Shown here: piece by piece, positions 1 to 38,720 of the stretch
How positions within the stretch are numbered: position 1 is the stretch's first letter
Layout: every line of letters begins with the position of its first letter
NCBI GenBank assembly: GCA_965644315.1
Contig: CBFFRQ010000149.1
Location: forward strand, 48,941-112,940
Direction: 5' to 3'
DNA from: Caecitellus pseudoparvulus
Taxonomy: Eukaryota; Protista; Bigyra: Bicosoecida
DNA length: 64,000 bases
Made by a program: the position numbers and the translations under genes
Notes under the pieces: generated by a model
Told to the model about the DNA's origin: nothing
Database searches by the model: none
What the model saw: only the letters and a program-made list of their open reading frames with translations

Positions 1-1544
1 TCACCATCGCGGAACATATCTAATATTTCAGGTTGAACATCCCCCTTTTTTCTACCTTTTCGCCCTCTTGTTCGGTCTGCTACTGGTTGGGCTTGTCCTG
101 CTGTGTCGTCTTCGCCTTCTTCTTCGCTTTCTAATTCCTTTAATTCTGCTTCATTCCTTATTAATTTTTGCCTTAAATCTTCCATTGTCTTCTCTAATTT
201 ATTAATTTGTTGTTCAATTTTATTTTGTTCTTTCAATATGATTTTTTCCCTTTCTCTTTCTAATTTATTTAATTGCATTTGATTTAGTCGCACTGTCTGC
301 GCATCTAGTGTGCCTGTTTCTAATATTTCGTTAATTCTTCTTGCTTCATCTACAATTTTAAAATATCTTGTGCGTTCTTTTTCATTTTGAATATCTGGAT
401 TATCTGTGTTTAAACTGTTTAGCCTTGTTGTTAATTGTTCGTATTCTTCTAATAATCTTTCCCTTAGTTGTTCTTGTTCTTGAATTAATTTTTCTAATTT
501 CTGCATTTTTTCGGCTCTATCTTTTGCTCTTTTATATTTTTCTTCGGTTTCTTTAATTTCTTGTAATCTCTTTTTAACGTCTTTTCTATCTGTTAAATTG
601 GCGGTGCGTTGGTCGCTGTCCTTATCGTCTTTATATTGTCTTACGAATCGTTCAATTTCTTGATATGCACTTCTTGGGAGTAAATCTTTTAAATTATCAA
701 CTCCTTTTTTAACCTCTTCATTAATTCGCCTCATATCTTCATTAAATAAATCATTCTTTTTAGCTTTTATTATTTGGTTAAAATCACCGTTAAATTTTTG
801 TAGTCTGTCGGATGGGTTCATATTATAGCTATTTATTAAGGATTGTAAAACTAAATATATTTTAAAAATAACCTCATAATAATCCACACGCTCCAAATAA
901 TCGATATAAGTAGAAGATATTTTATTTTCGGTTCGTCCTTGTCCTGAGCCTTTTTCAGTGATAAATTTGCCGAATAAATCACGACCTATAAATAATTTCT
1001 CCATATTTCCCAAATAATTATCTATATGTGTTTCTGTTATTTGGGCGTATCTTTCTAATGAACTTATTGATAATCCTAAACCGTAGGCTTTTAAATTCCC
1101 TAGCACTTGTTTTGCTTCTTTGGCGTTATTTGTTACTTCTTTTAAAGAAAAATCAACGTTTGAAAGCTCACTAAAAAATAATTCAAATGAAGTTTTTACA
1201 GTTTCAGGCGTTTCAATATCCTCACGTTTTGGAGGTGGAAGCCCTAAATTTAGCGTTTTTAGTTGTTCTGCTCGTCGTTTTAATTGCTCTCTTACTTTCG
1301 TATTATCACTAAGAACACCACCTCGTATATTTCCTAATACCATATTATAATTTAATTGATTACTGTTTCCGCTGAAGCTATCAAGCCTATTAAATGAGCC
1401 CTGAGGTTGTGGTTTAGGTAATTTATATAAACCTTTTAAAAATCGTTCTTCATTTTTAGCGGTTTGTTTTAATCTATTTAATACGTTTCTTTTTGAATAA
1501 TTCGCATATTTCAAATGAAATAAATCTCTTTCTTTATTACTCAT
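1..1544 (-). CDS. Viral hypothetical protein, >510 aa, coiled-coil-rich C-terminal half; appears to run off the window edge (absent from the ORF track)
   Basis: ATG at 1544-1542. Manual translation gives MSNKERDLFHLKYANYSKRNVLNRLKQ...NIRGGVLSDNTKVREQLKRRAEQL...EKMQKLEKLIQEQEQLRERLLEEYEQL with no stop down to ~420; the remainder was not checked codon by codon. Confidence 0.8.
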   Translation of the reverse strand, partial: MSNKERDLFHLKYANYSKRNVLNRLKQTAKNEERFLKGLYKLPKPQPQGSFNRLDSFSGNSNQLNYNMVLGNIRGGVLSDNTKVREQLKRRAEQLKTLNLGLPPPKREDIETPETVKTSFELFFSELSNVDFSLKEVTNNAKEAKQVLGNLKAYGLGLSISSLERYAQITETHIDNYLGNMEKLFIGRDLFGKFITEKGSGQGRTENKISSTYIDYLERVDYYEVIFKIYLVLQSLINSYNMNPSDRLQKFNGDFNQIIKAKKNDLFNEDMRRINEEVKKGVDNLKDLLPRSAYQEIERFVRQYKDDKDSDQRTANLTDRKDVKKRLQEIKETEEKYKRAKDRAEKMQKLEKLIQEQEQLRERLLEEYEQLTTRLNSLNTDNPDIQNEKERTRYFKIVDEARRINEILETGTLDAQTVRLNQMQLNKLEREREKIILKEQNKIEQQINKLEKTMEDLRQKLIRNEAELKELESEEEGEDDTAGQAQPVADRTRGRKGRKKGDVQPEILDMFRDG

Positions 1545-1561
1545 ATATATTAAATAAGGAT

Positions 1562-1607
1562 ATTTTATTTTTATTGTTATATTAATTAATTAACGATAAA
1601 ATAAAAT
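1562..1607 (-). terminator. AT-rich palindrome/hairpin directly after the stop codon of the 213-aa gene
   Basis: Arms attttatttttattgtta (1562-1579) and taacgataaaataaaat (1591-1607) are near-complementary around a self-palindromic attaattaat core. The stop codon is at 1608-1610. Confidence 0.55.
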
Positions 1608-2249
1608 TTAATCTAATAAATGATTTTGTTTTATGTATTTTGAAGCTTCCCCAAGGCTCATATTATGCTCTTTCATCAGTTGTGAAACTAATTTATTCCG
1701 TTTTTTTTGTTTCTCTGATAATTTACGAGGCTTCTTAGCTTTTTTCATTTTACCATATCCAACAGCCTCTAAACCTGCCTTAATATGTTGTCCATATGGA
1801 AGAGCTGGAGAAATGGCTTTTATTACCTTTCCTGCGGGCTTCCACACCATATCGAACCCTTTCTTAAAATCCTTCCAGAAGCTACCACCCTTAATATGTC
1901 CGAGGTGTTTCTGTAATTCTTCCGCATATTTTTCGCCTAATTTCTGACCCCCTAAAAATTCACCCTGCTCACGGTCTGGAATTTTTGCCTTTTTAGCTCG
2001 TTTTCCTCCTACGGTTCTTTTTGTGCTTCCTAATAGACCCTCGAGGCGTTTATCTGTATATGGTTCGGTGTTTAATTCGCCATAACTTCGTCCTCCGTAA
2101 GTGCGGTTATGTTGTGATGGTAAGTGAATAAGTTGCGGAAAATATACTGTATGACCTTTACCCCCTTCAACTGTTGAATTTTCAAGGGTTCTTGATTGTT
2201 CCATATTTAATAATAAATCCCTTAGTTCTTGGTTTTCTACTTGTGACAT
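1608..2249 (-). CDS. Basic putative viral core/membrane-active protein (adenovirus protein VI-like amphipathic helix after a GG site)
   Basis: 213 aa with five GG motifs. IKGG|SFWKDFKKGFDMVWKPAGKVIKAI is an amphipathic segment, followed by a Lys-rich C-terminus ending LMKEHNMSLGEASKYIKQNHL. Confidence 0.7.
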   Translation of the reverse strand: MSQVENQELRDLLLNMEQSRTLENSTVEGGKGHTVYFPQLIHLPSQHNRTYGGRSYGELNTEPYTDKRLEGLLGSTKRTVGGKRAKKAKIPDREQGEFLGGQKLGEKYAEELQKHLGHIKGGSFWKDFKKGFDMVWKPAGKVIKAISPALPYGQHIKAGLEAVGYGKMKKAKKPRKLSEKQKKRNKLVSQLMKEHNMSLGEASKYIKQNHLLD

Positions 2250-2278
2250 ATAATATATATAACTATATTTTTTTTTCC

Positions 2279-4261
2279 TTAGCGTAAAATAAATTTTTTA
2301 GTGTGAATATTTAAAATATTTTTTAGTATATCTTTTAATTTATTTAGGTTTTGCTCCATTGTTTGAGGTTGTTTTAATATTGTTCTTATAGTTTGTAAAA
2401 TATTATTTTCCTTTTTTAAATAGGAATTTACACTGTATATATTAGATAACCTATAAATAAAACTTTCTATCGTATTTTTTATTTTATCGTTATTTGTTTT
2501 TGTTTCTAAATTTATTAACGTTAAAATAGCTACAATATCATTTATTACACTGTATAATATGCCAACTTCACCATTAAAAAAATTTGTTAATTCTTGTAGT
2601 CTTTTTAAAGTTTTTTCTTTTATTTTATCGCTTTTATTGTAAGTGTAAATATGTTTTAGTTTGGAATATTCACGTTTTAAAGCCTTGTAATATTCACCCT
2701 TCATTATATACGTTTTTATTTGGTCGTTTAATGTGTCCTTAATATTTACTCTATAATTATTTATTCTTTTATTTTGCTTATCCCTTAATTCGTATATTAT
2801 GGAAAAATCCATATATTTATTTCTTGTGAATCCTAAAGCGTCTATTTTTATTAATCCATCCGTTTTAAATGCTTGTTTTAGTGTGATTGTCTCGCCGTTT
2901 AATAGTGTTTTTTTTCCGTTTAATACTTCATCAGCAGTCCAACGCATAATATGAAATCTTAAAGCGTCTTTTATTTCTGCTAATTCTGCAGGTGTTGGAT
3001 TTTCCTTAATTAATTTATATAATTTGGCTTTTTCTATTTCGCTTAAAAATGATAACTTATTTTTTATATCTTCCTTTATTTGGCTTGGTTTGTATCCTAT
3101 TAATTTATTATTTTTTTTATAAATATTGGGTAAAATTTCAAATGGTCTATATTCACCGATTTTTATATCATCATAAATTAAATATATATTTTGTGCTTTT
3201 ATTAATTGTTTTACTTTATTTTGAAATTCTTTAACAAATTTATTTAAATTATCAACTTTAACGACTTCATATAAATCAAAATCTGAGGGGTAAATAGTCG
3301 CTTTTATTGCAGACGAGCCCATAACCTCAACATTATTTATATTAAATGAAAGAGCTTTTATTATTTCTATTGTATCGATTCCGTAATTTTGAGGCTTTTT
3401 TTTTGTTAATACTGACCCAGCACCCGTTATTTTATTCCACCAAGCCCCAAGGCGTGTGGCTACCTTTGACACTGGCGATAAATAAGAAGCGTTTTTTTTT
3501 AAATTATCGTAAATCTCGGATATATCCTGATATATAAATTTTGTTGTTCTGTCACTGCTTAAATTATTAGCTTCTAAAATTGATAATATGAAATTTTGGC
3601 AATTATTACTAAATGCATCATAATCAAAATATTTTTTATCGCCCATAAATTCCCTTGTTTTTTTTAACATTTGATTTAAATTTAAGCCTCCTTGATATTT
3701 TTCAACTGGTGTGCTTTCGCTGTGTTTATTTTGTTTTACATTAAAAGACACGTTTATTTCTGCGTTTTTCTCAACCACTACATAACGCCCATTAATAGAA
3801 CAAATTAAAGATAAATGAAAAAAATTATCAAATCCGTAATTATGCATAAGTTCCTTAAAATAACCAAAAGAAAGCGTATTTAATATATTAATTAAAGTTT
3901 TTTGAACTGGTGTGCGAACTATCATAATATTAGTTATTGGTTTATCGCCTACTTCTTTTAATGTGCGTTTTGTTTCGTTCGTGTAATCTGTGCGGTAATT
4001 AAAAGGCTTTGTTATGTTATCTTCAATCCTATCTATTGGTTTAAATTTATCTTTTACTTTATTATAACCTTTCTTTAAAAATGAAAATGTTGAACTTGCA
4101 CCTTTACGGAAAAAATCACCGATTCCTGAGCCGTGGAAGCTACTTAATATAATTTGTTTTAATTCTGCTTTTTTTATTTGTTTTGGTGGATATTCTCCAT
4201 AAAGCTCTTTATATAATCCTTTTAATTCCGCTTTTGTTAAATTATACGCTTGAGCTTTCAT
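2279..4261 (-). CDS. Viral fusion protein: permuted papain-like (NlpC/P60, PPPDE/LRAT-type) Cys hydrolase plus Pol-beta-superfamily nucleotidyltransferase
   Basis: FFH149L...EKN...YDAFSNNC221QNF gives His-before-Cys order with an NC motif. VMG315S-x10-D327FD329LY matches the hG[GS]x9-13DhD NTase signature, with a later IKID. Helical C-terminus. Confidence 0.7.
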   Translation of the reverse strand: MKAQAYNLTKAELKGLYKELYGEYPPKQIKKAELKQIILSSFHGSGIGDFFRKGASSTFSFLKKGYNKVKDKFKPIDRIEDNITKPFNYRTDYTNETKRTLKEVGDKPITNIMIVRTPVQKTLINILNTLSFGYFKELMHNYGFDNFFHLSLICSINGRYVVVEKNAEINVSFNVKQNKHSESTPVEKYQGGLNLNQMLKKTREFMGDKKYFDYDAFSNNCQNFILSILEANNLSSDRTTKFIYQDISEIYDNLKKNASYLSPVSKVATRLGAWWNKITGAGSVLTKKKPQNYGIDTIEIIKALSFNINNVEVMGSSAIKATIYPSDFDLYEVVKVDNLNKFVKEFQNKVKQLIKAQNIYLIYDDIKIGEYRPFEILPNIYKKNNKLIGYKPSQIKEDIKNKLSFLSEIEKAKLYKLIKENPTPAELAEIKDALRFHIMRWTADEVLNGKKTLLNGETITLKQAFKTDGLIKIDALGFTRNKYMDFSIIYELRDKQNKRINNYRVNIKDTLNDQIKTYIMKGEYYKALKREYSKLKHIYTYNKSDKIKEKTLKRLQELTNFFNGEVGILYSVINDIVAILTLINLETKTNNDKIKNTIESFIYRLSNIYSVNSYLKKENNILQTIRTILKQPQTMEQNLNKLKDILKNILNIHTKKFILR

Positions 4262-4315
4262 AATGTATATATATAATAGGTTGATAATTTATTTAAATAA
4301 AATATTTATTAATAC

Positions 4316-4519
4316 TTAATTTAAATTATTGTATTCTTTTAATAGTTCTACATATTCATTTATCTCGTGAGGTAAAAAATATATTGAAATTTGAGAATAA
4401 AAAAACGGACGGTTAATATCCATAAATCCACTAATGCTCTCATTAAATCGCTCTTTTAATGAAACAGTTTTTAAATATTGTTGATTGGTTTTTGAGATGA
4501 ACTCCATATAATATAACAT
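4316..4519 (-). CDS. Small viral hypothetical protein (67 aa)
   Basis: ATG-started ORF preceded by the same 60-bp upstream/N-terminal block as the 209-aa gene. Confidence 0.5.
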   Translation of the reverse strand: MLYYMEFISKTNQQYLKTVSLKERFNESISGFMDINRPFFYSQISIYFLPHEINEYVELLKEYNNLN

Positions 4520-4561
4520 ATAATTAAATCTTTAAGTGGTTTTGTTTAAGTATAAAAATAA
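4502..4561 (-). promoter_or_regulatory. Duplicated promoter/start block, copy 1
   Basis: ctccatataatataacatataattaaatctttaagtggttttgtttaagtataaaaataa is 57/60 identical to 5179-5238. Confidence 0.7.
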
Positions 4562-4566
4562 CATAT

Positions 4567-5196
4567 TTAAAAAATTTCAGGTGGATTAAATGCAAAAAAA
4601 ATATGCTCTTGTGTTATATTTTCAATTTTTGCATAAAATTTAACCAGTTCTTTATCAATATAATAATGGGTATTACAATATCTATTATCCGATTTTTTAA
4701 TATGTTTATATTCTTCGTGTAACGTATTTTTTAATTTATTATAAATAATATCATAATTTAAACAATCTATATATTTATATATTGAGCGTATATTATATTT
4801 AAATCCAAAATTAATTAAATCAATTTTTTTATTATTATCACTAATCTCTAATTTAACGCCAATAAAAATTTTTTCATTTCGAAACTTTTGAAAGTATGGT
4901 TCGTTATCTACTTGTATTAATTTTACCGTTTTTTTTAATTCTTCATAATTTTTTAATCGTTTTCTAAATATACAATATCCAAAATAATTTTTTATGGATT
5001 TATGATTTAAATCGTATCTCATTAAAATATATTCAGAATCCCATAATTTAGTTTCATAATAATTATTTATTAATGTGCTTATTTTTGTTGCATAAAATAA
5101 TTGATCTTTAAATATATCTTTGATAGTAATATTATTATGTTCATTTGTAAAATTAAATAAATAAAATTTAATATCAACCTCCATATAATATCCCAT
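4567..5196 (-). CDS. Viral hypothetical protein (209 aa, Y/K/I/N-rich)
   Basis: Long ORF in very AT-rich DNA; no recognisable motif. Confidence 0.65.
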   Translation of the reverse strand: MGYYMEVDIKFYLFNFTNEHNNITIKDIFKDQLFYATKISTLINNYYETKLWDSEYILMRYDLNHKSIKNYFGYCIFRKRLKNYEELKKTVKLIQVDNEPYFQKFRNEKIFIGVKLEISDNNKKIDLINFGFKYNIRSIYKYIDCLNYDIIYNKLKNTLHEEYKHIKKSDNRYCNTHYYIDKELVKFYAKIENITQEHIFFAFNPPEIF

Positions 5197-5238
5197 ATAA
5201 ATAAATCTTTAAGTGGTTTTGTTTAAGTATAAAAATAA
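5179..5238 (-). promoter_or_regulatory. Duplicated promoter/start block, copy 2
   Basis: Same 60-bp block. On the - strand it reads tatACTTAAAcaaaaccACTTAAAgattta just upstream of the ATG. Confidence 0.7.
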
Positions 5239-5239
5239 T

Positions 5240-5885
5240 AAAAAAATAACAATTGAAGAGGCTTTTATTATATACTCTATTATTTATTTTATTGGTGATG
5301 CCTTTTAATATCTCATTTGATGAAGCCTATTTTATTGATTGATTGACTGATTAATAAAATAATTAATTGACTGATTGAATAAATATATATTTTCCCTAGC
5401 ACTTTTTATATCCCTAACTATTTTTATTTATTTTTTAAAAATTTATTGATTGAGCGAATGTATGAAGGTTTTATATGCTTTTAGAAGGTTATACTGTTTT
5501 AGGGTAAAAATAAGGGTTAAATCCCTAAAAAAAAAAAACTTTTTTTATTTTATTATTTCTGAAAGATATTATTTTTTTTTGGGGTAATTTTAAAATTTTA
5601 ACCCTAAAAACTTTAATTATTTATATTTTTATTATTAGGGACTAAATAAGGGATAAATCCCTAAAAAAGAAAAACTATTTTTATTTTATTATTTATAAAA
5701 AATATTATTTTTTTTTGGGGACTTTATATTATAATATTTTCTTACGAAAATCCTTTTAATTTCCCATATGAGAAATACCATAAAATATAATTTCGCAGAA
5801 ATTAAATGCGGAGCAAGGAGGAGGAATGAGAAATAAGCGGAGCGAAATAATCTCCTTCCTCCTTTGTTGTTCTATTATGCTTATC
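5240..5885. repeat. Non-coding terminal region of the viral element (candidate TIR) with ~85-bp imperfect direct repeats and a terminal stem-loop
   Basis: Repeats taggg..aataaggg.taaatccctaaaaaa...tattatttttttt.gggg at ~5499-5585 and ~5636-5722. ttgactgatt occurs twice near 5340-5376. Purine/pyrimidine inverted arms caaggaggagga...tccttcctcctttg at ~5815-5866. Confidence 0.65.
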
Positions 5886-8800
5886 GCGTGACGACTGCAC
5901 CCCTCATCCAAACTCAGCCCGGAGCATTTGTGGTGGGGGTGTCCGCTGGCTGGCATCATGCGTGTGCGCTGTTCACCGGCGGGCGTGTGGCCTGCTGGGG
6001 CCAGCCCGCGGAGGAAGACGAGTACAATTATGGCGGTCGAGGGCGGCTCGGGTATGGCAACTTGGACTGGGTGGGGCTGGCCAACAGGACTTCAGTTGCC
6101 GAGGCTGGGTATGTGAATACGTCTGCAGCCGTGGTGGAAGTGTTTGCCGGCGCCCGCACCACATGTGTGACGCTGGTGGACGGGGGTGCCCAGTGCTGGG
6201 GTGAGGGTGCAGGGGGCCTGTTGGGGTACGGCAATGTGGATGACATCGGAGATGATGAGGTGCCAGCCTCGGTGGGGCCACTGCCGCTGACCAAGAATGT
6301 GCGCAGCATGATTGTGGGTGCGCGATTCACCTGTGCGATCTTCGACTCCGGCGACTTGCACTGCTGGGGAAGCGCAGCGTACGGGCAGCGCGGCGACGGC
6401 GGGGGCGGTGACCGTGCCGCAGATGGCGTGCCCATGTTCCTCATGGCGCCAGTGCGGTATGCCTTGGATCTGGGCATGATGGTGACTCTGGGGGGCATTG
6501 ATACAAACCTGGCAGTGGTCGGCAGTCGTGGCGCGTGGGGCAGCGTCGCGGAAGTGTTCAGCGGGGGGGACACAAACCTGGGCGGGCTGGTGGCAGTGCC
6601 CCCTTGGCTGCTGCAAATCATGCAGGGGGCGTACTGGGTGGACATTCCCACGCCCACTGCGGTGTTCGGCTCAGCATGCTCGGGGTCTGGCATGCCGACC
6701 ACTGAAGCCAACGGCATTTGCGCCGCTGACAGCAGCTGCTCGGTAGTGGCAGGGGGAACGGCTGTGCAGCCTTGGTCCATGTCCTGTGTGTGGCCAGAGG
6801 ATTGGGCAACCTCCCCTGTGCTGCGCGTTGACGCCGTCCGCTCTGCAGCAGACGTGTCCACCCGCCCCCGTGTGCCCAGCACGGGGGGCGTGCCGCTGGC
6901 TCTGATCGGCTCCTTCTGGCCTCTCGTGCTGCAAACGCCGGATCCATCTGCGTTGTTGCCGTCTGGGGCTGCCTTTTGGGTTCAAGTCGGGGAAGCACAG
7001 TGCACGGGAGCTCGAGTCCTGTCAGCGACGCTCATTTCTTGCACGGCCCCTGCTCTGCCAGACGCAGACGTGTCTGGGGGCGTGGGAGTGACGCTGCACC
7101 ACGTCTTCGATTCTCCTGCCGGCTCTGTGGGTGCACAAGAGGTGCTGCTGTATGCACAACCCTCCCTCACGGTGGCCCTTCCCAGCAGCGGCTTTCCTCA
7201 GGGTGGTGGGGCTGTCGTGTTGCGTGGGGAGCACTTGGCCCAGCGGGCTGTCAATGGCTCTAACTTGCAGTATGAGCTGCCGCCAGCAGCCAGTGAAGTC
7301 TTCGTCGCGAATACCAGCGAGCCTGGCGCAGTTCCCATGACATCATGCCCACTACTTCTCCCCCTCCTGGCAGGTGAAGTGCGGTGCTTGCTTGGGCCTG
7401 GTACAGGCAGCGTGTGGCTGCGCATGACAGTGGCAGGGCAAACGACACAGTCCGTGCGGGTGGACTACGCTGTGCCGGAGCTCCTGAGCGTGGAGCCCGC
7501 CGAGCTGCTGACGACCAACGACTCCTCCGCTGCCAACTTGGTGTTTGCCGGCCAGAACTTCGGCACGCCCGGGACGCCGCTGCATGCATCTGTGGCCGGC
7601 ATTCCTTGCACAACGACAACTCGGCTGAGTGCTACTGCAGTACAATGCGGTGGCCTGCCGACTGACGCGCTCTACGGGGTGTCAGAGACAGTTGGTGCCG
7701 AGGTGCAGGTGGGCGAGGCTTCAGCTGCCCTTCCACAGGCAGTGCGGGTTGTCGGCAGCATGAGCCTGGTGTCCCTGGAACCGGTGCCGCTGCCTGCTTC
7801 TGGCGGCCTCGTGACTATGTACGGAGTCGGCCTTGGGCGGTCACCAGCATCCGCAGGTGCAGGTGGTGACGTGGCAGACGTTGTCTTCGGCTCAGGCACC
7901 AACAGTGTGCGGTGTACCAACATCTCCGCAGATGCCAGCCAGCTCACTTGCCAGCTTCCTGCTGGGGCGGGCCCACTGGGAGTCGTTCGCGCTGTGCGTG
8001 TGGGGGAGTGGTGGCCACACTGCAAGGCGAGTACATCCAGTATAGCCCCACATCAGCCACGGGCGTGTCTGTGGCACGCTTGGTCGTGTCTGCGCCAGAC
8101 ATGGCATATGCTCAGTCCTTCAGCATCACGGGGAGGAATTTCGCCTCCCGCAGCGGTGCTCCAGAAGTGTCCAGCGCTTTGGTCGTAACTGTGAATGGTA
8201 TCAGCTGTCCTTCTGTAGAATGGGTGTCGCTTGAGCGGGTGAACTGCTCAGGGCTCGTTGTCCCGCACACCACAAGTACCCCCCTCCAGCTACAGGTCTC
8301 GCTGCCCGGGCTATGGAGTACCACGCCACTGGTTCTTCCTGTACAAACTCAGCCCCTCGTGGCAGCCGTGTTGCCGCCCCTCGTCTCGGCGGGCGGCGGG
8401 CGCACCATCCGCATTGTCGGCAGCGGCTTCGTGCCAGGTGGGGGCATGGGGCCAGGCCCCACCTCCTTCGTGAACGTCACAGTCGGAAAGGCGGCTTGTG
8501 GGGCGGTGCACGTTCTGAGCGATGGGGAGATCGCCTGTCAGTCTCCGTCCTTGGACGCCGCCGGCGCAAGCTCCAGCGAGGTGCGCGTGCATACAGCAGC
8601 TGGGTGGGACAGCGGGCCCGGCCCCGAGTTGCTGTTTTCCACGCCCGAGGTCTTGCGGGTTCAAGGCCTTGCCGTGCAGCATGCTGTCCTTGGCGCACCT
8701 GGCGATGTTGCCACGCTGACCCTGGACGGGCTGGCCCTGGGCGACCCTGCGGCAGGGGCTGGAAACGGCTCGCTCATGCTGGGCGACATGGAGTGCAGGG

Positions 8801-11697
8801 CGGCAGGGGGGCGCGTGGCCCTGGATAGTGCAGGAAGGCAGGTCAAGTGTGCAGGGTACCGCCCAAGTGCTCTTCCGCGACCTCCGCCGGGCGGCAGTCT
8901 CAGTCTGCAGCTGTCCTTCCGGACCAACGAAGGCGTGCTGGCAGCCATGCCAGCTGGGGCACTGCTCGTTGCAGGCCCACCGGCCCTTACACGCGCAACT
9001 CCGTCTGAAGCACAACCAGGCGCCCCACTCTCCGTGCTGGGTATGAATCTGGGGCTGTCTGACGCAGACGTGGTGGCTGTCATGGTTGGGCGCGTGCAAG
9101 TGCCACGCAGCCAATGGAGCCGGGCGGGGGATGCGGGCATTCGCATTGACAGCCTCCCCCCTCCAGCATCGTTGATGCTCCAAGATCTCATTGACGTCCG
9201 CTTCACAGTTGCCCTGCGCAGCGGGTACAATGCTTCGACGCCCGCCTCGCAGGGTGGCGGCTTTCGGTACCTGTTACCGCCGCAAGCTCCCCTCACTGCG
9301 CCACGTCAAGTGTGTGGGTATCGAGAGGGGCCAGGGGGGGCCACTCGAGTGGTGTTCCGGTGGACAGACGACGCCATCACTGCTGTGTCCCCTGTCCAGG
9401 CATGGGTGGTTAACTTTGCCGAGCGGCCGCCACGCACAACGGCGGGTGTCGGAAACGAGACGGCTGCCATGTCAAGGCGTGTCGTGCCGGTGGGAGGGGC
9501 AACTTCCGGAGATGTGCTGGAGCTTGACGGTGTGCCCGCTGACTGCGCGCACATTCTGCCACCCACCGGGCCGGGCCAGTTGCTGGATGTGCGAGTGTTG
9601 GACACGCCTGCAGCGCCGTTGTGGCTGGCTGTGCGTGCAGCGACTGGCGTCAGCGACGATGCCTTGCTCGGCCCTGCATCCCCCCCTGCTGGCCCCGTCT
9701 TTTCTGTGTGCAGCTCCTCACAATACCTGGCGACGCACGCGCTGTCGGGAGAGGACTGGAGCGCCGTTCTCTGCCAGCCATGCCCTGCTGGGGCGCTGTG
9801 TGATGGCTTGCCGTGGGAGGGCATGCGCAACGCGGCTGGCTTCTACCGTGTGCCGTGGTCGGAGGCTGGTCTGGCCTTCTTGCCCTGTGTGCAGGAGGTG
9901 GTGTGCCCCAGTCCTTCTCGGGTGCTTGTGAAGCGCAGCGACTTGGCGTACTTGCAGCATGACACCTGTCGACCGGGCTGCCCCCTGCCTGCTCCGTTCG
10001 TCGGCAGTGGCACGCTCATGGTCGCCAACGCGTCGCAAGAAACCGGCCATGCACAGGGTAGCTCGTCAGTGGCACCGACACAGGGGTTTTCCGAGTCCCC
10101 CACCAGCGCGCCGATCTCTCAGTGCCTGGAAGGACACACGGGCCCTCTGTGTGAGCAGTGCACAGCAGGGTACGGCCGTGTCGGCGCGGGGACCTGTTCA
10201 AAGTGCTCGGGTGGGCGTGCTGGGGCGGCAGGGCTCATCGTCTTGTTTGCCCTGGGTGTGACCTTGGTCGTGGCGTGGTTGCTGCAGGGGCAGGTGCGCA
10301 CTCGTGCCCTGGAGCGTAAAACGCACAGTGTCGTGAAGAAGGTGCTGCTGAGTCACCTGCAGCAGTGTGCACTAATGCTGTCGTTCGACCTGAAGTGGCC
10401 CAACCCCTTCCGCAGCCTGCTGCAGATCTCGGACATGGCCGGCTCGGCAGCGTCCACGTTCGCCAGCGTGGACTGTGTGCGGGCAACGGATGGTGCCGGC
10501 CTGGACTCGACGTTCCGTGTCACCGTCGTGGCCACCCTAGTAACTCCCGTGCTGCTGGGCATCGGTGCTGTCGCAGTGTTCTGGGCACTGTGGCTGTGCC
10601 GCCGGGCCGACGCAGAGGAGACGCGGCGCCGCTGCCTCGTAGCACTGGTGGTGCTGACGTACCTGTTCTACACGCCCATAAGCCGCGCCACCATGCAGCT
10701 GTTCACATGTGTCGATGTAGGGGGCCAAACCCGCTTGCTGGAAGACCTCAGCATTGAGTGTGACTCCACGGAGAACCGCATTTGGTCCCTGGGGCTGGGC
10801 GTTCCCCTCCTGCTGCTGTTTGTGCTGGGCTACCCTGCCCTGGCAGCAGTTCACCTCTGGCGGGAGCGGGAGGTGTTGCAGACCAGCACGTGGCATCGCC
10901 GTACACTGGGCCTGCTGTACCTAGGATACAAAGATCAGTACTTCTGGTACGAGGTTGCAATTATGGCACGCAAGGCTCTGTTTGCGCTGGTGCTCGTGGC
11001 GCTGCGCCCCGTGGGGCTGCTGTGGCAGATTGGCTTTGGGCTGCTGGTGCTGTGTGCTGCGTGCATGTTGTCTGCTGCCCTGCAGCCGTACGAGGCGCCG
11101 CTGTTCAACAAGCTGGACATGGCCAGCATGGCCCTCTCAATTACAACCCTGGCCGGCGGCGCGCTGCTGTTTCAAGACCGTGTGGACGATCTGCGTGCAG
11201 CCTCCAGTGCAACGCACAGGCGGTGGCAGCACCTGGATGCCGCTGCGCAGTCCATCTCCACTGTACTGTGCGTGGCCAATGCTGCGTTCCTGGGCTTCGT
11301 CCTCGTGTGGTGGCTGCGCGAGTGGTACGGGTCAGAGGTAGCGCCTGTTCTGCGCAGGCGTGCTGGAAAAGCAAAAGATCCCTCCAGCCCCTGCCAAGCA
11401 GCTGAGCCGCAGACAGTGCAGGGTGCTGCTGGTCCAGCTCAGAAGCGACAAGTAGACCTTCCCGACTTCCAGCTAAAGGACGCAAAGCAAGGACCATTTC
11501 CAGGGAGTGGCAAGCAGCCTCTGGCGAGCGCGCAGACACCCTCGGGCCTTTCTGGACAGTGTGCTTTCCTCGCACAGACAGAGAACCCGTTGCGGGCATC
11601 CATCACAGCGGGCATGGGGGGCGGGAAGAGACCCATGCCGCCTCGAAGAGTGCTGCAGCAGCGACGTGCCTCGAAGGCCTCCGCCAGCAAAGTGTGA
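5886..11697 (+). CDS. 5'-truncated host surface protein: RCC1/BLIP-II repeats + multiple IPT/TIG domains + Cys-rich region + multi-pass (7-9 TM) C-terminus
   Basis: RCC1-like VSAGWHHACAL..GRVACWG and GxLGYG repeats; IPT motifs (GG..vtl.G.NF, ..C..P.G.G); CxPCPxGAxC and CxxGHTGPLCxxC; hydrophobic helices with LYLGYK...YFWYE. ORFs 5864-8188 and 7912-11697 join by one missing G in the run at 8002-8006. No ATG or signal peptide on the host side of the junction. Confidence 0.8.
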
Positions 11698-12006
11698 TCG
11701 TGTGGAGCGTGTGTGTTCAGTGCGGCTGCTCATGGCGAGTGCAGCTGCGCAACGTACCAATGCATTGTGGTTTGTGGTGAACAACAGCACTCTGAGCTGC
11801 CGGGCTTGAAGCTGGGATGCTCGCTCGTGGGCCGACTTGGATGCGGCCCAGCGTCAGCCCGAATAGGCTGCTTCTCGAGACTGTGCGGTCTCGCTTGCCT
11901 TCACCAAGGACGAGCAGCGACCTCCGCGCAACCTGCTGGCCAGCGCAGCGTGCACGGGGGCTGTTCCACGCAGGCGGCTCTGACAAAGCACACCCAGTCC
12001 CCCCAC

Positions 12007-19574: not shown

Positions 19575-21140
19575 ATGGCATCAGGAGCCGCAGCCACCGT
19601 TAAATTAGCGAAGTGGCAGGCAGCATGTGAAGAGATGGATGTTTATTCTCTCATGGACATGCTCCATCCTGGTGGTCAGCGTTGTGGAAGTGCTTTGGCC
19701 GGCCTGTCACGTGCAGAGACGACGGCTGGCTTTGTGGTGGCTTGTCGGATTGGCCATGTTGGGCTAGTGCGTGAACTACTGGCACTGGAGGGGGGCCATG
19801 AAGTGGATGTACATGCAAAGGACATCTTAGGCACCGAGGCTGGGTTCCGCGAGGCGTGTCGGTACGGGCACCTGAGCGTGGTACGTGAGTTGTTGTTGTT
19901 GACTGATCATCGCGCTGTTGACGTCAACGCGGGAGACGCGTACGGGCCTGAAGCGAGCTTCCGGTGCGCCTGCGCGAACGGCCACCTCGAAATCGTGCGT
20001 GAGATGCTCAGTTTGGATGGTGACCGGTGGGTGGATGTGCATGCAAAGTGTGAGGGGGCCTTCTTCTGGGCATGCGCCCACGGGCACATTGCTGTGGTGC
20101 GAGAGCTGCTAGCCCTGGAGGGCTGCCGTCGAGTGGATGTGCATGCACCTTCTATTGGTGGGCCCGAGGCTGCATTTCGGGGAGCATGCGCATCCGGAAG
20201 CGTACCTGTCGTCCTCACCCTGCTTGCCCTTGAAGGCGACCGGGAGATGAACGTACATGCCGAAGACAAAGATGGCCCGGAGGCCGCTTTTCGAAAAGCG
20301 TGCGAGCATGGCCACGCAGATGTTGTGGCAGCCTTGCTTGCACACAAGGGGGGGCGGTATGTGGATGTGAATGCCGTGGACGGGTATGCTTTGCGGAGCG
20401 CGTGTTCCCGTGGCCATGTTCCTGTCGTCCGACTGCTTCTGGGACTTGAGGGGCACCAGGAGGTGAATGTGAGTGCGCGCGACTGGCTGGGCCCCGGGGC
20501 GGCCTTTCGGCTGGCATGTCGCAACGGGAAGGTGGGTGTTGTGCGTGAGTTGTTGGCGCTCCCGCCTGAGAGGGGGCTGGATGTACACCGAAGTGATGTT
20601 AGCGGTCCGGAGGCTGCATTCCGCTTGGCTTGTCAAAAAGGGCACATTCACGTGGTGCGCGAGCTCCTGGCGCTGAGCGGTGACAGAGCGGTAGATGTAA
20701 ATGCCACTGAAATCTCAGGGTTTGTAGAGGCATGCTTTGAAGGTCACGGAGACATTGTGCGGGAGCTGTTGCGTCTTTCCGGGGAGAGAGCAGTGGATGT
20801 GCATGCGGCAGACGAAACAGCCTTTATCGCCGCATGCTGGGCAGGTCATGTGGACGTGGTGCGTGACTTGCTGGCCCTCACTGGTCCTCGCGCCATTGAT
20901 GTGCACGCCGACGATGGAAGTGGACCCGATGCTGCCTTCCAGGGAGCGTGCATGCAGCCCAATGCTGCCGTGCTGTGCGAGCTGCTGGGCCTCACTGGCC
21001 ATCGGGCCATTCCCCTACAGGCACGCGTTGATGCTGGACAGGTGGCCGTGCAGCCAGCCAAGGATGCCGCGTGGGCCGGCACCAGCACACGGCGGGGGCG
21101 GAGGGGGGTGGTGATGCTGCGGAGTGCACATCGTGGATGA
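19575..21140 (+). CDS. Ankyrin-repeat protein, array gene 1
   Basis: Repeats F..AC..GH..VVRELL.L.G.R.VDVHA; shared N-cap (W.AACE) and C-terminal W.GTSTR.GRR motif. Confidence 0.85.
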   Translation: MASGAAATVKLAKWQAACEEMDVYSLMDMLHPGGQRCGSALAGLSRAETTAGFVVACRIGHVGLVRELLALEGGHEVDVHAKDILGTEAGFREACRYGHLSVVRELLLLTDHRAVDVNAGDAYGPEASFRCACANGHLEIVREMLSLDGDRWVDVHAKCEGAFFWACAHGHIAVVRELLALEGCRRVDVHAPSIGGPEAAFRGACASGSVPVVLTLLALEGDREMNVHAEDKDGPEAAFRKACEHGHADVVAALLAHKGGRYVDVNAVDGYALRSACSRGHVPVVRLLLGLEGHQEVNVSARDWLGPGAAFRLACRNGKVGVVRELLALPPERGLDVHRSDVSGPEAAFRLACQKGHIHVVRELLALSGDRAVDVNATEISGFVEACFEGHGDIVRELLRLSGERAVDVHAADETAFIAACWAGHVDVVRDLLALTGPRAIDVHADDGSGPDAAFQGACMQPNAAVLCELLGLTGHRAIPLQARVDAGQVAVQPAKDAAWAGTSTRRGRRGVVMLRSAHRG

Positions 21141-21305
21141 AGGGGGGTGGCTTGGCGTGGTGTGAGGGGGGCATTGACAGCGGCACAATTCAGTTGCATC
21201 TAGCATTGTGTGGTGGAAGGCATGCTGGGTGTGCAGGTTTCGGCCTTGCTGGTGCGGTTGGCGTCGCAGAGGGAGGGGTGGGTGCGGAATCTGAGCCACC
21301 ACGCC

Positions 21306-22781
21306 ATGGCGGCTGAGGCAGGTGCGGCCGGGTATGCGGCTCGCTGGCGTGCTGCGTGTGAGGGTGATGATGCTGAAGCACTGATGCACATGCTGTGTGG
21401 CGACGGAGTAAGCTGCGGGAGTGCTGTGGAGGTGCTGTCAGGTGCAGAGACGACTGCTGGCTTTGTGGTGGCGTGTCGTGTTGGGCACGAGGCGCTCGTG
21501 CGTGAGCTGCTCGCGCTGGGCGGCAGTCAGGCAGTGGATGTTCATAGTCAAGGTGATTTCAACCCGGTAGCTGCTTTTGGGTGGGCGTGCGCCAATGGTC
21601 ACGTGGGTGTGGTGCGGGAGCTGCTTTCGTTGCGGGGCCCGCGCACCATCGATGTGCACGCGCCAGATGGGGATGGGCCTGAGGCTGGCTTTCGTTGGGC
21701 CTGTGCCAATGGACATGTGGAAGTTGTGCGCGAGTTGCTTGCTCTGACTGGTGACCGTGCGGTGGATGTTCATGCCAAGAGTGGGGACGTACCTGAGGCT
21801 GGGCTTGTGGTTGCTTGCCAGCAAGGCCACTTGGGTGTCGTCCGTGTGCTTCTAGCGCTGGACGGTGACCGTGCACTGAATGTGCACGCACAGTGTGAAG
21901 TTGCTCTGCGAGTGGCATGTCGCAGAGGGCGTGAGGAAGTTGTGCGAGAGCTGCTGGCGCTTGAGGGGCAGAGGAGAGTAGATGTCCACGCGCACGACGG
22001 GGCCGACGATACGCCTGCCTTTGTCTTGGCTTGTGAAAGTGGGCATACCGGTACTGTGCGCATGTTGTTATCACTGTCAGGTGATCGGGAAGTTGATGTG
22101 CACGTTGCTGTCGGCGGTTGGCCGGAGGCAGCGCTTCGGGCCGCCTGCAAACAAGGCCACTTGGAGGTTGTGCGCGAGCTACTGACCCTCTCGGGTGCAC
22201 GATCAGTGGATGTCCATGCTGCGGATGCAGGCGGCACTGAGTCTGGCTTTCGATGGGCTTGTTCGCGTGGTCACGTGGATGTGGCGCGAGAAATGCTAGC
22301 GCTGGTCGGTGACAGGGCAGTGGATGTGCATGCAGGCGGCGAGCATGCCTTCAGACTGGCCTGTGCGTGTGGCCATAGGGAAGTCGTGCGTGAGCTCTTG
22401 CAATTGGCAGGAGACCGGACAGTGGATGTTCACGCCCGAGACGCCTTAGGGCCTGAGGCTGGCTTTCGGTATGCCTGCAGCAACGGTCATGTGGACGTGG
22501 TGCGTGACCTACTGGCCCTCACTGGTCCTCGCGCCATTGACGTGCACGCCGACGATGGAAGTGGACCCGATGCTGCTTTTCGAGGAGCGTGCATGCAGCC
22601 CAATGCTGCCGTGCTGTGCGAGCTGCTGGGCCTCACTGGCCATCGGGCCATCCCTCTGCAGGCACGCGTTGATGCTGGACAGGTGGCCGTGCAGCCAGCC
22701 AAGGATGCCGTGTGGGCCGGCACCAGCACACGGCGGGGGCGGAGGGGGGTGGTGATGCTGCGGAGTGCACATCGTGGATGA
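21306..22781 (+). CDS. Ankyrin-repeat protein, array gene 2
   Basis: ATG context gcggaatctgagccaccacgccATG is shared with gene 1; about 11 repeats. Confidence 0.85.
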   Translation: MAAEAGAAGYAARWRAACEGDDAEALMHMLCGDGVSCGSAVEVLSGAETTAGFVVACRVGHEALVRELLALGGSQAVDVHSQGDFNPVAAFGWACANGHVGVVRELLSLRGPRTIDVHAPDGDGPEAGFRWACANGHVEVVRELLALTGDRAVDVHAKSGDVPEAGLVVACQQGHLGVVRVLLALDGDRALNVHAQCEVALRVACRRGREEVVRELLALEGQRRVDVHAHDGADDTPAFVLACESGHTGTVRMLLSLSGDREVDVHVAVGGWPEAALRAACKQGHLEVVRELLTLSGARSVDVHAADAGGTESGFRWACSRGHVDVAREMLALVGDRAVDVHAGGEHAFRLACACGHREVVRELLQLAGDRTVDVHARDALGPEAGFRYACSNGHVDVVRDLLALTGPRAIDVHADDGSGPDAAFRGACMQPNAAVLCELLGLTGHRAIPLQARVDAGQVAVQPAKDAVWAGTSTRRGRRGVVMLRSAHRG

Positions 22782-22946
22782 AGGGGGGTGGCTTGGCGTG
22801 GTGTGAGGGGGGCATTGACAGCGGCACAATTCAGTTGCATCTAGCATTGTGTGGTGGAAGGCATGCTGGGTGTGCAGGTTTCGGCCTTGCTGGTGCGGTT
22901 GGCGTCGCAGAGGGAGGGGTGGGTGCGGAATCTGAGCCACCACGCT

Positions 22947-24422
22947 ATGGCGGCTGAGGCAGGTGCGGCCGGGTATGCGGCTCGCTGGCGTGCTGCGTGT
23001 GAGGGTGATGATGCTGAAGCACTGGTGCATATGCTGTGTGGCGACGGAGTATGCCGCGGGAGTGCTGTGGAGGTGCTATCAAGTGCAGAGACGACTGCTG
23101 GCTTTGTGGTGGCGTGTCGTGTTGGGCACGAGGCGCTCGTGCGTGAGCTGCTCGCGCTGGGCGGCAGCCAGGCAGTGGATGTTCATAGTCAAGGTGATTT
23201 CAGCCCGGTAGCTGCTTTTGGGTGGGCGTGCGCCAATGGTCACGTGGGTGTGGTGCGGGAGCTGCTTTCGTTGCGGGGCTCGCGCACCATCGATGTGCAC
23301 GCGCCAGATGGGGATGGGCCTGAGGCTGGCTTTCGTTGGGCCTGTGCCAATGGACATGTGGAAGTTGTGCGCGAGTTGCTTGCTCTGACTGGTGACCGTG
23401 CGGTGGATGTTCATGCCAAGAGTGGGGACGTACCTGAGGCTGGGCTTGTGGTTGCTTGCCAGCAAGGCCACTTGGGTGTCGTCCGTGTGCTTCTAGCGCT
23501 GGACGGTGACCGTGCACTGAATGTGCACGCACAGTGTGAAGTTGCTCTGCGAGCGGCATGTCGCAGAGGGCGTGAGGAAGTTGTGCGAGAGCTGCTGGCG
23601 CTTGAGGGGCAGAGGAGAGTAGATGTCCACGCGCACGACGGGGCCGACGATACGCCTGCCTTTGTCTTGGCTTGTGAAAGTGGGCATACCGGTACTGTGC
23701 GCATGTTGTTATCACTGTCAGGTGATCGGGAAGTTGATGTGCACGTTGCTGTCGGCGGTTGGCCGGAGGCTGCGCTTCGGGCCGCCTGCAAACAAGGCCA
23801 CTTGGAGGTTGTGCGCGAGCTACTGACCCTCTCGGGTGCACGATCAGTGGATGTCCATGCTGCGGATGCAGGCGGCACTGAGTCTGGCTTCCGATGGGCT
23901 TGTTCGCGAGGTCATGTGGATGTGGTGCGCGAGCTCCTGGCGCTGGTCGGTGACAGGGCAGTGGATGTGCATGCAGGCGGCGAGCATGCCTTCAGACTGG
24001 CCTGCGCGTGTGGCCATAGGGAAGTCGTGCGTGAGCTCTTGCAATTGGCAGGAGACCGGACAGTGGATGTTCACGCCCGAGACGCCTTAGGGCCTGAGGC
24101 CGGCCTTCGGTATGCCTGCAGCAACGGCCATGTGGACGTAGTGCGTGACCTGCTGGCCCTCACTGGTCCTCGCGCCATTGACGTGCACGCCGACGATGGA
24201 AGTGGACCCGATGCTGCCTTCCAAGGAGCGTGCATGCAGCCCAATGCTGCCGTGCTGTGCGAGCTGCTGGGCCTCACTGGCCATCGGGCCATTCCCCTGC
24301 AGGCACGCGTTGATGCTGGACAGGTGGCCGTGCAGCCAGCCAAGGATGCCGTGTGGGCCGGCACCAGCACACGGCGGGGGCGGAGGGGGGTGGTGATGCT
24401 GCGGAGTGCACATCGTGGATGA
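22947..24422 (+). CDS. Ankyrin-repeat protein, array gene 3
   Basis: Near-identical to gene 2 with scattered substitutions. Confidence 0.85.
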   Translation: MAAEAGAAGYAARWRAACEGDDAEALVHMLCGDGVCRGSAVEVLSSAETTAGFVVACRVGHEALVRELLALGGSQAVDVHSQGDFSPVAAFGWACANGHVGVVRELLSLRGSRTIDVHAPDGDGPEAGFRWACANGHVEVVRELLALTGDRAVDVHAKSGDVPEAGLVVACQQGHLGVVRVLLALDGDRALNVHAQCEVALRAACRRGREEVVRELLALEGQRRVDVHAHDGADDTPAFVLACESGHTGTVRMLLSLSGDREVDVHVAVGGWPEAALRAACKQGHLEVVRELLTLSGARSVDVHAADAGGTESGFRWACSRGHVDVVRELLALVGDRAVDVHAGGEHAFRLACACGHREVVRELLQLAGDRTVDVHARDALGPEAGLRYACSNGHVDVVRDLLALTGPRAIDVHADDGSGPDAAFQGACMQPNAAVLCELLGLTGHRAIPLQARVDAGQVAVQPAKDAVWAGTSTRRGRRGVVMLRSAHRG

Positions 24423-24587
24423 AGGGGGGTGGCTTGGCGTGGTGTGAGGGGGGCATTGACAGCGGCACAATTCAGTTGCATCTAGCATTGTGTGGTGGAA
24501 GGCATGCTGGGTGTGCAGGTTTCGGCCTTGCTGGTGCGGTTGGCGTCGCAGAGGGAGGGGTGGGTGCGGAATCTGAGCCACCACGCC

Positions 24588-25508
24588 ATGGCGGCTGAGG
24601 CAGGTGCGGCCGGGTATGCGGCTCGCTGGCGTGCTGCGTGTGAGGGTGATGATGCTGAAGCACTGATGCACATGCTGTGTGGCGACGGAGTAAGCTGCGG
24701 GAGTGCTGTGGAGGTGCTATCAAGTGCAGAGACGACTGCTGGCTTTGTGGTGGCGTGTCGTGTTGGGCACGAGGCGCTCGTGCGTGAGCTGCTCGCGCTG
24801 GGCGGCAGCCAGGCAGTGGACGTACACGAGGGCGGCAAAGACGAAAAAGAGGCAGCCTTCCGTGGGGCTTGCCACAATGGTCACGTGGGTGTGGTGCGGG
24901 AGCTGCTTTCGTTGCGGGGCCCGCGCACCATCGACGTGCACGTTCATGATTGGCAGGGACCTGAAGTTTGCTTCCGTTACGCATGCTCACAAGGCCATGT
25001 CGACATTGTGAGTGAGCTTTTGGCTCTGACGGGTGACCGGTCAGTAGATGTGCATGCCGGGGGGGAGGCTGCGTTTCGAAGTGCTTGTGCACGTGGACAT
25101 GTTGCACTTGTGAAGGTGTTGCTGGCCCAGACGGGAGACAGGGCAGTGAACGTACACGCTGTGGACTGGGCTGGACCTGAGGCTGGCTTCAGAGGAGCCT
25201 GCCTGTGCGGCCGTGTTGCTGTGGTTCGCGAGCTACTGGCTCTGTCGGGCGATCGAGAGGTTGACGTTCATGCGAGTGGGTTCGGCGGGCCTGAAAACGG
25301 CTTCAGAGTTGCGTGTAGGAAGCAGCACCACGGCGTTTTGCGGGAATTGATGGCGTTGACAGGCCGCCGAGCTATACCCGCGCAGACTTGGCGAGCGGCA
25401 GGGGGCATTGCCGTGCAGGCAGCCAAGGACGCTGCCTGGAGCGGCACGAGCACGCGCAATGGGCGGAGGTCACTATTGCTCCTCAGATTATCGACTGCTA
25501 TTGCATGA
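24588..25508 (+). CDS. Ankyrin-repeat protein, array gene 4 (shorter)
   Basis: N-terminus nearly identical to genes 2/3, divergent downstream repeats, C-terminal AAKDAAWSGTSTRNGRRSLLLLR. Confidence 0.85.
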   Translation: MAAEAGAAGYAARWRAACEGDDAEALMHMLCGDGVSCGSAVEVLSSAETTAGFVVACRVGHEALVRELLALGGSQAVDVHEGGKDEKEAAFRGACHNGHVGVVRELLSLRGPRTIDVHVHDWQGPEVCFRYACSQGHVDIVSELLALTGDRSVDVHAGGEAAFRSACARGHVALVKVLLAQTGDRAVNVHAVDWAGPEAGFRGACLCGRVAVVRELLALSGDREVDVHASGFGGPENGFRVACRKQHHGVLRELMALTGRRAIPAQTWRAAGGIAVQAAKDAAWSGTSTRNGRRSLLLLRLSTAIA

Positions 25509-34946: not shown

Positions 34947-35127
34947 GCTTGCCGGAGGGCCCAGCGCGCAGCCAGTGGGGTGTGAGATTCTCGTCTGTGG
35001 TGCCCTGCGTGGCCATGTGCTGGGCGAGACGGGTACAGGTCTGACCGGCGAAGCGAGACCCGTTCACGACGCGCTAGCCTTGTGCCTCGGAAGGGGTGCA
35101 CTTATCGAGTCATGCATTGAACCCGCA

Positions 35128-38565: not shown

Positions 38566-38720
38566 GTCTCGGGCTGTCGCTGTGAAGTCCCAATATCCGC
38601 ACGGGAGGGGTGCTGACAATTCCTTAGTGCTGCAACTTTCAGACAAATACAAAACGCTCAAGCAACAATTTAAAGCCTGGTGAATTTGTTCCCCGTGACA
38701 GGCGAAGCCACCTTTTTCCC

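Follow-up and report, generated by a model that had tools for sequence, protein, structure and literature searches.

Endogenous virophages in exons of protist genes, including non-mavirus virophages in bicosoecids, have already been published (PMC8547959; PMC9952930; PMC10120064; 10.64898/2026.07.28.741278). The endogenous mavirus-like elements (EMALEs) of Cafeteria burkhardae are low-GC, intronless virophages in a GC-rich genome that are polymorphic between strains and carry an rve integrase with a chromodomain; 13 of their integration sites are exonic, the target site duplications (TSDs) are mostly 3-5 bp long, and all the elements are mavirus-like (PMC8547959). Most non-mavirus virophages are known from metagenomes only, without a host; a single Caecitellus element is placed in the Burtonviroviridae there, and one that is Adriamonas-like is left unclassified (PMC9952930). 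Non-mavirus endogenous virophages have also been described in the bicosoecid Halocafeteria seosinensis (10.64898/2026.07.28.741278). Here we analyze 64,000 nucleotides of Caecitellus pseudoparvulus (contig CBFFRQ010000149.1, positions 48,941 to 112,940; the whole stretch is called the window below). With a probability of roughly 85%, bases 1-5871 of the window are the end of an endogenous virophage that stands near the Burtonviroviridae and unclassified Priklausovirales-like virophages, not near mavirus, and that lies inside the coding sequence of a host gene with RCC1 repeats, IPT domains and transmembrane (TM) segments.

In outline the locus resembles an EMALE, a low-GC, intronless virophage inserted into an exon of a GC-rich protist genome, and the rve integrase with chromodomain is shared by the relatives of the element. 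Bases 1-5871 have a GC content of 26.5% and bases 5872-64000 one of 59.6% (26% and 60%, compared with 30-53% for EMALEs and 70% for C. burkhardae; PMC8547959). The GC content at third codon positions is 0.10-0.28 in the five AT-rich open reading frames (ORFs) versus 0.69-0.71 in the host gene. An earlier note, made from the sequence alone, had placed this AT-to-GC step at ~5885; the step is real, and its position is corrected to 5871/5872 (within ~3 bases). The GC change-point by itself would put it at 5808, since GC content rises in the final 64 bases of the element. The five ORFs, O1-O5, are co-oriented as that note had described, all on the minus strand, and since none of them rises above the Pfam or NCBIfam cut-offs it is understandable that the gene set could not be assigned at first reading.

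The case for a virophage is made by O1 (<3-1544; 514 or more residues, a virophage-clade protein open at the window edge), O2 (1608-2249; a Gly-Gly-rich basic protein of 213 residues) and O3 (2279-4261; 660 residues). At E<=0.001, 14 homologues of O3 were found, with identities of up to 61% (P0001), and alignment-based scans gave 26, 31, 59 and 69 loci, 183 in all with duplicates. In one of these, the 21,279-bp contig L001, methylases, PrimPol, an rve integrase with chromodomain and two further genes are followed by O3-O2-O1, ATPase, protease, penton and major capsid protein (MCP). Its domain matches are Sputnik_MCP (4e-49; Sputnik_MCP_1st), penton V18-19 (3e-16) and rve (6e-12) with chromo, and the sole PDB match of its MCP at E<=1 is Sputnik V20 (3j26). 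O3-O2-O1 are contiguous in L001, L002, L029, L030, L032 and L033; the ATPase comes next in L001, L002, L030, L032 and L033, and protease, penton and MCP are then present in L001, L030 and L033. The order O2-O1-ATPase-protease-penton is also found in L117 and in L059, which has a 2.6-kb gap behind O3, and the capsid module of L115/L116 is divergent. Virophage-type MCP, ATPase and protease occur across the syntenic relatives L001, L030, L033, L059 and L115; the relatives' contigs are 19-29 kb long, with penton matches, where 15-45 kb is expected of a virophage genome. An O1 homologue is present in 17 of the 183 loci, together with the ATPase in 15, the MCP in 10 and the rve integrase in nine, in a set where three pairs are one contig fetched twice, several loci are near-identical and many are cut short. 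When L001 genes were used as queries, 71 of the 114 loci found by O3 matched a virophage core gene. Other searches with O3 returned less: none of 30 pattern matches in viral_contigs was confirmed as a relative, alignment gave no relative in genome_contigs (0/495) or in phages, and among the matches listed from the metagenome scan (52 of 64 parts) none was closer than 48%. We also note a 627-residue gene (L001 7169-9049) that is conserved upstream of O3 in several relatives and has no sequence match in Pfam, NCBIfam or PDB.

The placement of these relatives speaks for virophages of the Sputnik-like capsid type. In a FastTree phylogeny of the nucleotidyltransferase (NTase) domain of O3 (35 rows; loci not covering the domain were left out), the window and P0001-P0003 fall inside a 99-supported clade of 18 rows that includes L001, L002, L003, L029, L030, L032 and L033 and takes in all five integrase-bearing loci known at the time of the tree. 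A quick MCP tree (33 rows, with SH-aLRT [Shimodaira-Hasegawa-like approximate likelihood ratio test] support only and the careful search unfinished) leaves L001, L030 and L033 unresolved in a 99-supported group with L059, L004 and several long branches. In Table S1 of PMC9952930, the contigs of L003, L004 and L059 are Burtonviroviridae, the cluster seed of L001 is Maveriviricetes;Unclassified with all four markers, the more distant L015 and L022 are Sputniviroviridae, and none of the relatives found there is listed as Maviroviridae. Homologues of O1-O3 thus occur in Burtonviroviridae (YSLV5; IMG_VR_1165, which is L059; IMG_VR_1426, which is L003/L115) and in the unclassified viral operational taxonomic unit IMG_VR_1427 (L001) (PMC9952930), mostly in the same order and beside the morphogenesis module. 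Those contigs are metagenomic, with no host flank seen among the 183 loci and no GC step above 0.25 (L059 peaks at 0.24), whereas the element in the window is host-flanked. The likeness to mavirus and EMALEs that the earlier note had suggested is therefore given up: the syntenic relatives carry a Sputnik-like MCP, unlike the mavirus-like elements of C. burkhardae, and are listed as Burtonviroviridae or unclassified. The TCTA promoter motif of Maviroviridae and EMALE type 4 is found within 70 bases upstream of none of the five ORFs, and L001 has no annotated protein-primed DNA polymerase B (pPolB).

The interrupted gene is intronless and encodes RCC1 repeats, IPT domains, a Cys-rich part and multiple TM segments; its 3' part (~1940 codons) occupies 5872-11697 on the plus strand. 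The frame starts in the middle of an RCC1 repeat at the junction, as the earlier note had seen. The protein P0042 (2365 residues, on a 44-kb ENA contig) is uninterrupted and 98% identical to the host frame; its alignment with the window begins at residue 425 (base 5873), with none before, and the junction at 5871/5872 falls at codon 424/425 of this intact protein. Its cluster mate P0074 (2421 residues), which itself apparently begins inside an RCC1 repeat, is also unbroken across the insertion site. At the protein level, then, the insertion separates at least 424 N-terminal RCC1-repeat residues (480 in P0074) from the remainder of the gene, and no copy of the separated residues lies elsewhere in the window. 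The unbroken P0042 and the O3-O2-O1 synteny with virophages together uphold the proposal of an endogenous virophage in a host surface-protein gene. Of the proposal that the gene was truncated or knocked out, the interruption stands and the knock-out is not demonstrated, the start of a host contig in a public run (see below) suggesting an empty allele. Similarly, the insertion is recent in relative terms only, with 39 of the 1940 residues compared (15/709 and 24/1231) differing in the unbroken allele; low GC alone cannot date it, because EMALE loci common to several strains are also low in GC (PMC8547959).

The host frame is also split near 8001, where three of four public runs compared with the window have an extra G and P0042 is continuous; this break is likely a one-base assembly error of the window. 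At 6211, in a G-run, the runs X1 and X3, which are from the same organism, have an extra G that shifts the frame of the host remnant and is absent from the runs X5 and X7, the window and P0042; either decay of the interrupted allele or the collapse of a variant might explain it. A protein 96% identical to that of the host is deposited under the name Symbiodinium sp. KB8. Dinoflagellate genes are not of this 5.8-kb, intronless kind, so a marine, bicosoecid-like heterotroph, a flagellate present in that culture, is somewhat more likely than not to be the host. The assembly of Symbiodinium sp. KB8 also contains four mavirus-type MCPs (PMC10120064).

Public sequencing runs bear on the insertion from both sides of the junction. 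At least one fifth of the words of 2000-8000 were found in 11 runs, five of which are marine metagenomes (X5, X6, X9, X10 and X11); four of the 21 listed runs (X1, X3, X5 and X7) were compared against window bases 1-12000, and each covers 30 of 30 bins. The AT-rich part is met in these runs as many variant contigs at 90-99% identity, which points to a family of copies. In X1, the host contig has its first base exactly at window position 5872, and a variant terminal contig extends 64 loose letters past 5807, so that its end is equivalent to 5871. A repeated end in a k-mer graph stops where the flanks diverge, and the end of the variant contig thus fits an element end at 5871; contigs in such a graph begin where two paths meet, and from the two X1 contigs we infer that X1 contains both filled and empty alleles. 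The host contigs of X5 and X7 match from 5879 and have a further 56 and 84 letters unlike the window, which suggests the empty site. The earlier note had proposed looking for an empty allele, and one is on record both in P0042 and P0074, which run unbroken across the site, and in the X5 and X7 contigs, which continue into other sequence upstream of 5879. Taken together, the contig ends in public runs fit a real, polymorphic insertion. Contig depth was dropped as a measure of copy number or allele share, since X1 (O5 cassette 9.9, host contig 81.7) and X3 (O5 contig 30.5, host contigs 29-37) disagree.

Several observations weigh against the identification of bases 1-5871 as the end of an integrated virophage. 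No capsid, ATPase, protease or integrase gene lies within the window, and with the MCP of the element itself outside it the virophage placement, while likely, is a proxy argument from the gene order of syntenic relatives. The closest O3 proteins, P0001 (61%) and P0082 (41%), come with no gene context, the nearest relatives that do have it reach an identity of only 42-47% for O3 and ~30% for O1, and mosaic origins are a feature of virophage genes. Replication and integration genes stand upstream of O3 in the relatives; the element carries nothing there except O4, O5 and its terminal region. The last 64 bases form a weak, imperfect hairpin whose energy was reached by 18 of 300 shuffles. Among the contigs listed from the four runs, none bridges the junction with 31 bases on each side, so that the join itself is not directly shown, and X1 is possibly the window's own source sample and hence not independent.

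The arrangement upstream of O3 raises the alternative of a truncated, non-autonomous element, which has lost the replication and integration module and depends on complete copies, an account that agrees with ours on origin and differs on activity. PrimPol, integrase and the 627-residue gene lie upstream of O3 in L001, L002, L029 and L030, and the 627-residue gene also in L027, L028, L032 and L034, compared with two ORFans here; truncated EMALEs with regenerated terminal inverted repeats (TIRs) are known (PMC8547959), and the extra base at 6211 in X1 and X3 hints at decay of the locus. We consider this unlikely, though it is the strongest of the alternatives: O1-O3 are intact and keep their predicted catalytic residues, variant copies span O1-O3 in all four compared runs, and gene order varies in the clade, with the integrase of L115/L116 located downstream of O2-O1.

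Considerably less probable is a chimera of assembly or library preparation, in which an unbroken host gene was joined to a virophage that is free or integrated at another site. It would account for the unbridged junction and for the presence of an intact host allele in public data; the probable homopolymer error near 8001 implies that the window comes from error-prone data, and the depth of the O5 cassette in X1, which is not a copy number, is far below that of the host contig. Against it, the join coincides with both the end of the variant terminal contig and the start of the X1 host contig, the host part contains no further copy of that end by which an assembler might be led astray, and the depths of the O5 contig and the host contigs are similar in X3. 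Hardly any weight attaches to the last alternative, a Polinton-like virus (PLV) or giant-virus fragment that shares genes with virophages: the fold of the O3 C-terminal domain is also present in Megavirus, Fadolivirus, Klosneuvirus and others, and gene exchange between PLVs and virophages is described for Halocafeteria (10.64898/2026.07.28.741278), but three adjacent genes have the same order as in virophage contigs, the 71 O3-found loci match virophage core genes, giant-virus matches are only 15-21% identical versus 42-47% for virophage contigs, and the syntenic relatives narrow the earlier note's virophage/Polinton-like virus to a virophage.

Within the virophage, O3 is predicted to be a fusion of a PPPDE/DeSI-like permuted papain peptidase with a nucleotidyltransferase resembling Megavirus Mg662 and Sputnik V21. 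The O3 model (pLDDT [predicted local distance difference test] 75, from 14 sequences) matches Mg662 (4XUL) over residues 289-660 with a Foldseek value of 7.5e-11 and a Z of 25.1 (root-mean-square deviation [rmsd] 3.5, 327 aligned); across Mg662 (4XUL/4AMS) and Sputnik V21/Zamilon, which have the same fold over this region, Z is 22.7-25.1. Residues ~107-266 match PPPDE1/deSUMOylase structures (3EBQ and 2WP7) with Z 8.7 (rmsd 4.5, 138 aligned) and 8.6, values only just above the tool's range for common arrangements. A Gly-Ser and three Asp positions of the Pol-beta type, which are the catalytic residues in this nucleotidyltransferase superfamily, are conserved in the C-terminal domain: D329 and D474 in 14 of 14 aligned rows and D327 in 13 of 14. 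In the peptidase domain H149 is kept in 11/11 and C221 in 12/12 of the rows with a residue there, with the His before the Cys. O3 differs from Mg662 and V21 in that its NTase stands behind the PPPDE-like domain, connected through a conserved protease-type motif. This fusion is present in 12 of the 114 loci; other virophages carry both domains apart, and in L003 and YSLV5 the NTase is separate from the peptidase domain.

In BFVD, the top rows for O3 are proteins of YSLV5 (the best), Zamilon and "V21 virophage-like" proteins. V21 had been reported without a detectable domain (PMC3671162), and among the matches listed no literature linking virophages with PPPDE, L544 or Mg662 surfaced, in a search that did not extend to subscription papers and preprint supplements. 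Mavirus MV19 was dropped as a homologue of the O3 peptidase, since it is an S74 peptidase. A further BFVD row, A0A1L4BK94, is a 271-residue mavirus protein that matches the V21/Mg662 fold at E 3e-8. By its length it may be the virion protein MV14, in which case V21 and MV14 would be one family.

O1-O3 each contain one adenain-type motif, at residue 73 of O1, 119 of O2 and 278 of O3, the last in the linker between the two domains. The motif is kept at its site in 12/12 (O3), 9/9 (O2) and 18/22 (O1) covering rows, and, over the length of the alignments, conservation of 80% or more was seen only at these sites and at a second O3 site near residue 41, where the window's own copy is not a strict match. 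The cleavage sites of the mavirus protease, GG|X and GX|G, resemble those of the adenovirus protease, (M/I/L/N/Q)XGG|X and XGX|G, and the mavirus enzyme also acts on a virion protein that is not part of the capsid (PMC6048507). Judged by these conserved motifs, which stand between the domains of O3 and before a helix of O2, all three are probably core proteins matured by a viral adenain protease. In O2, the motif at 119 is followed by a likely amphipathic helix (judged by eye), a basic stretch and a conserved C-terminal helical motif, and O2 is likely a protease-processed core or entry protein. We take it to resemble adenovirus protein VI. O1 is predicted to have an all-helical, conserved N-terminal domain and a low-complexity, coiled C-terminal part (pLDDT 67); its model has no BFVD match at E<=0.001, and the second-ranked row is a YSLV5 protein at E 5e-3. 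The last residues of O1 align to the C-terminus of the L001 homologue, so that O1 is nearly complete with little missing at the window edge.

In most relatives, the packaging ATPase comes after the O1 homologue, and the ATPase, protease, penton and capsid genes of the element would accordingly lie just past the left edge of the window. Most likely, the linear genome was inserted into the exon, without sequence preference, by an rve integrase of the kind that the relatives carry. The copy would belong to the multi-copy family, and should the empty allele still exist, only one copy of the gene is disrupted. By analogy with mavirus, the provirus might be transcribed, from promoter-like repeats, only once a giant virus has infected the cell and supplies the transcription. 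Shared promoters are a proposed switch for provirus reactivation (PMC8547959). The adenain protease would then cut O1-O3 as virion core proteins, with O3 releasing the putative PPPDE-like peptidase and the Mg662/V21-like nucleotidyltransferase.

The new points are the assignment of a Burtonviroviridae-related lineage to a host locus whose empty allele is on record, and the interpretation of O3. The locus links a virophage branch so far met mainly in environmental DNA to a protist genome. No other endogenous Burtonviroviridae surfaced in the accessible literature beyond the Caecitellus entry in PMC9952930, and preprint supplements may list related elements. With the interrupted and uninterrupted gene both recorded, integration, reactivation and host cost become testable in culture, and O3, in which a nucleotidyltransferase predicted to be active is linked to a peptidase by a conserved protease motif, would give a handle on the long-unassigned V21 family. 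A bolder picture, which we hold to be doubtful, is that of a multi-copy, segregating rve virophage outside the seven described families, whose protease-matured virion polyprotein would bring an active deSUMOylase-like peptidase and an active Mg662-like NTase into the cell or the giant-virus factory, and whose accessory genes would be exchanged as cassettes behind a repeated promoter at the end of the genome. If true, a host culture would make the V21-family function and the giant-virus partner of the lineage directly testable.

The end of the element carries O4 (4316-4519, minus strand; 67 residues) and O5 (4567-5196, minus strand; 209 residues, 18% GC), two ORFans with no homologues in the 183 loci, Pfam or NCBIfam, nor for O5 in the ESM Atlas. 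A repeat of ~60 bases with a doubled ACTTAAA motif lies ahead of each, around the start of O4 (4502-4561, minus strand) and around that of O5 (5179-5238, minus strand), with 41 of 42 bases identical between the copies, and O5 forms an accessory cassette between the two. The doubled motif was found neither in the host part of the window nor in the 183 loci and is a candidate promoter shared with a giant virus. A contig of X1 and X3 matches the repeat at 4507 and then leads into the start of an AT-rich ORF unlike that of the window, which represents either a further accessory gene exchanged behind this repeat or the opposite end of the element. Near-identical virophages also differ in their terminal accessory genes (L001 5-1033, 2751-2825 and 6533-6579; L002/L030 1-3220), and a repeated TCTA-containing motif stands ahead of several of these genes, a cassette-like end that resembles the O4/O5 design.

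Beyond O5 lies the non-coding end (5197-5871), a candidate TIR. The earlier note had called it a structured non-coding end of 650 bp; it is non-coding and actually 675 bp long, and for structure the shuffles give weak support, the observed folding energy of three stretches being reached by 18, 126 and 21 of 300 dinucleotide shuffles. No second copy of 5197-5871 exists within the window, host part included. In H. seosinensis, TIRs average 808 bp, and elements with non-pPolB replicases and rve integrases have terminal palindromes beside the TSD; those palindromes are distinct (52 nt, subtype 5), the hairpin in the window being imperfect, and the host GC is 47% (10.64898/2026.07.28.741278). An 86-nt direct repeat (5499-5584 and 5635-5720, 90% identical) lies within the end, and both copies open with TTAGGG and contain CCCTAA. 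A telomere reading of this repeat was rejected, given few telomere-like hexamers and folding no better than that of shuffles.

The window as a whole is gene-dense. A search against Rfam gave no match. Four tandem ankyrin-repeat genes and one distant one (19575-25508 and 44167-45216) form one family, with two members near-identical; their Atlas neighbors are mostly giant-virus ankyrin clusters, weakly recognized. Two DDE_Tnp_4 transposase-like genes are located at 30041-31702 and 61442-63646. A 1221-residue ORF without a Pfam match (33706-38793) has a terminal peptide that nearly repeats the start of an adjoining ORF (33706-35016), which suggests a transposon with a duplicated flank. Finally, 45341-56482 holds a second large IPT/cadherin-like, multi-TM surface-protein gene, whose Cys-rich/TM part is distantly similar to that of the interrupted host gene.

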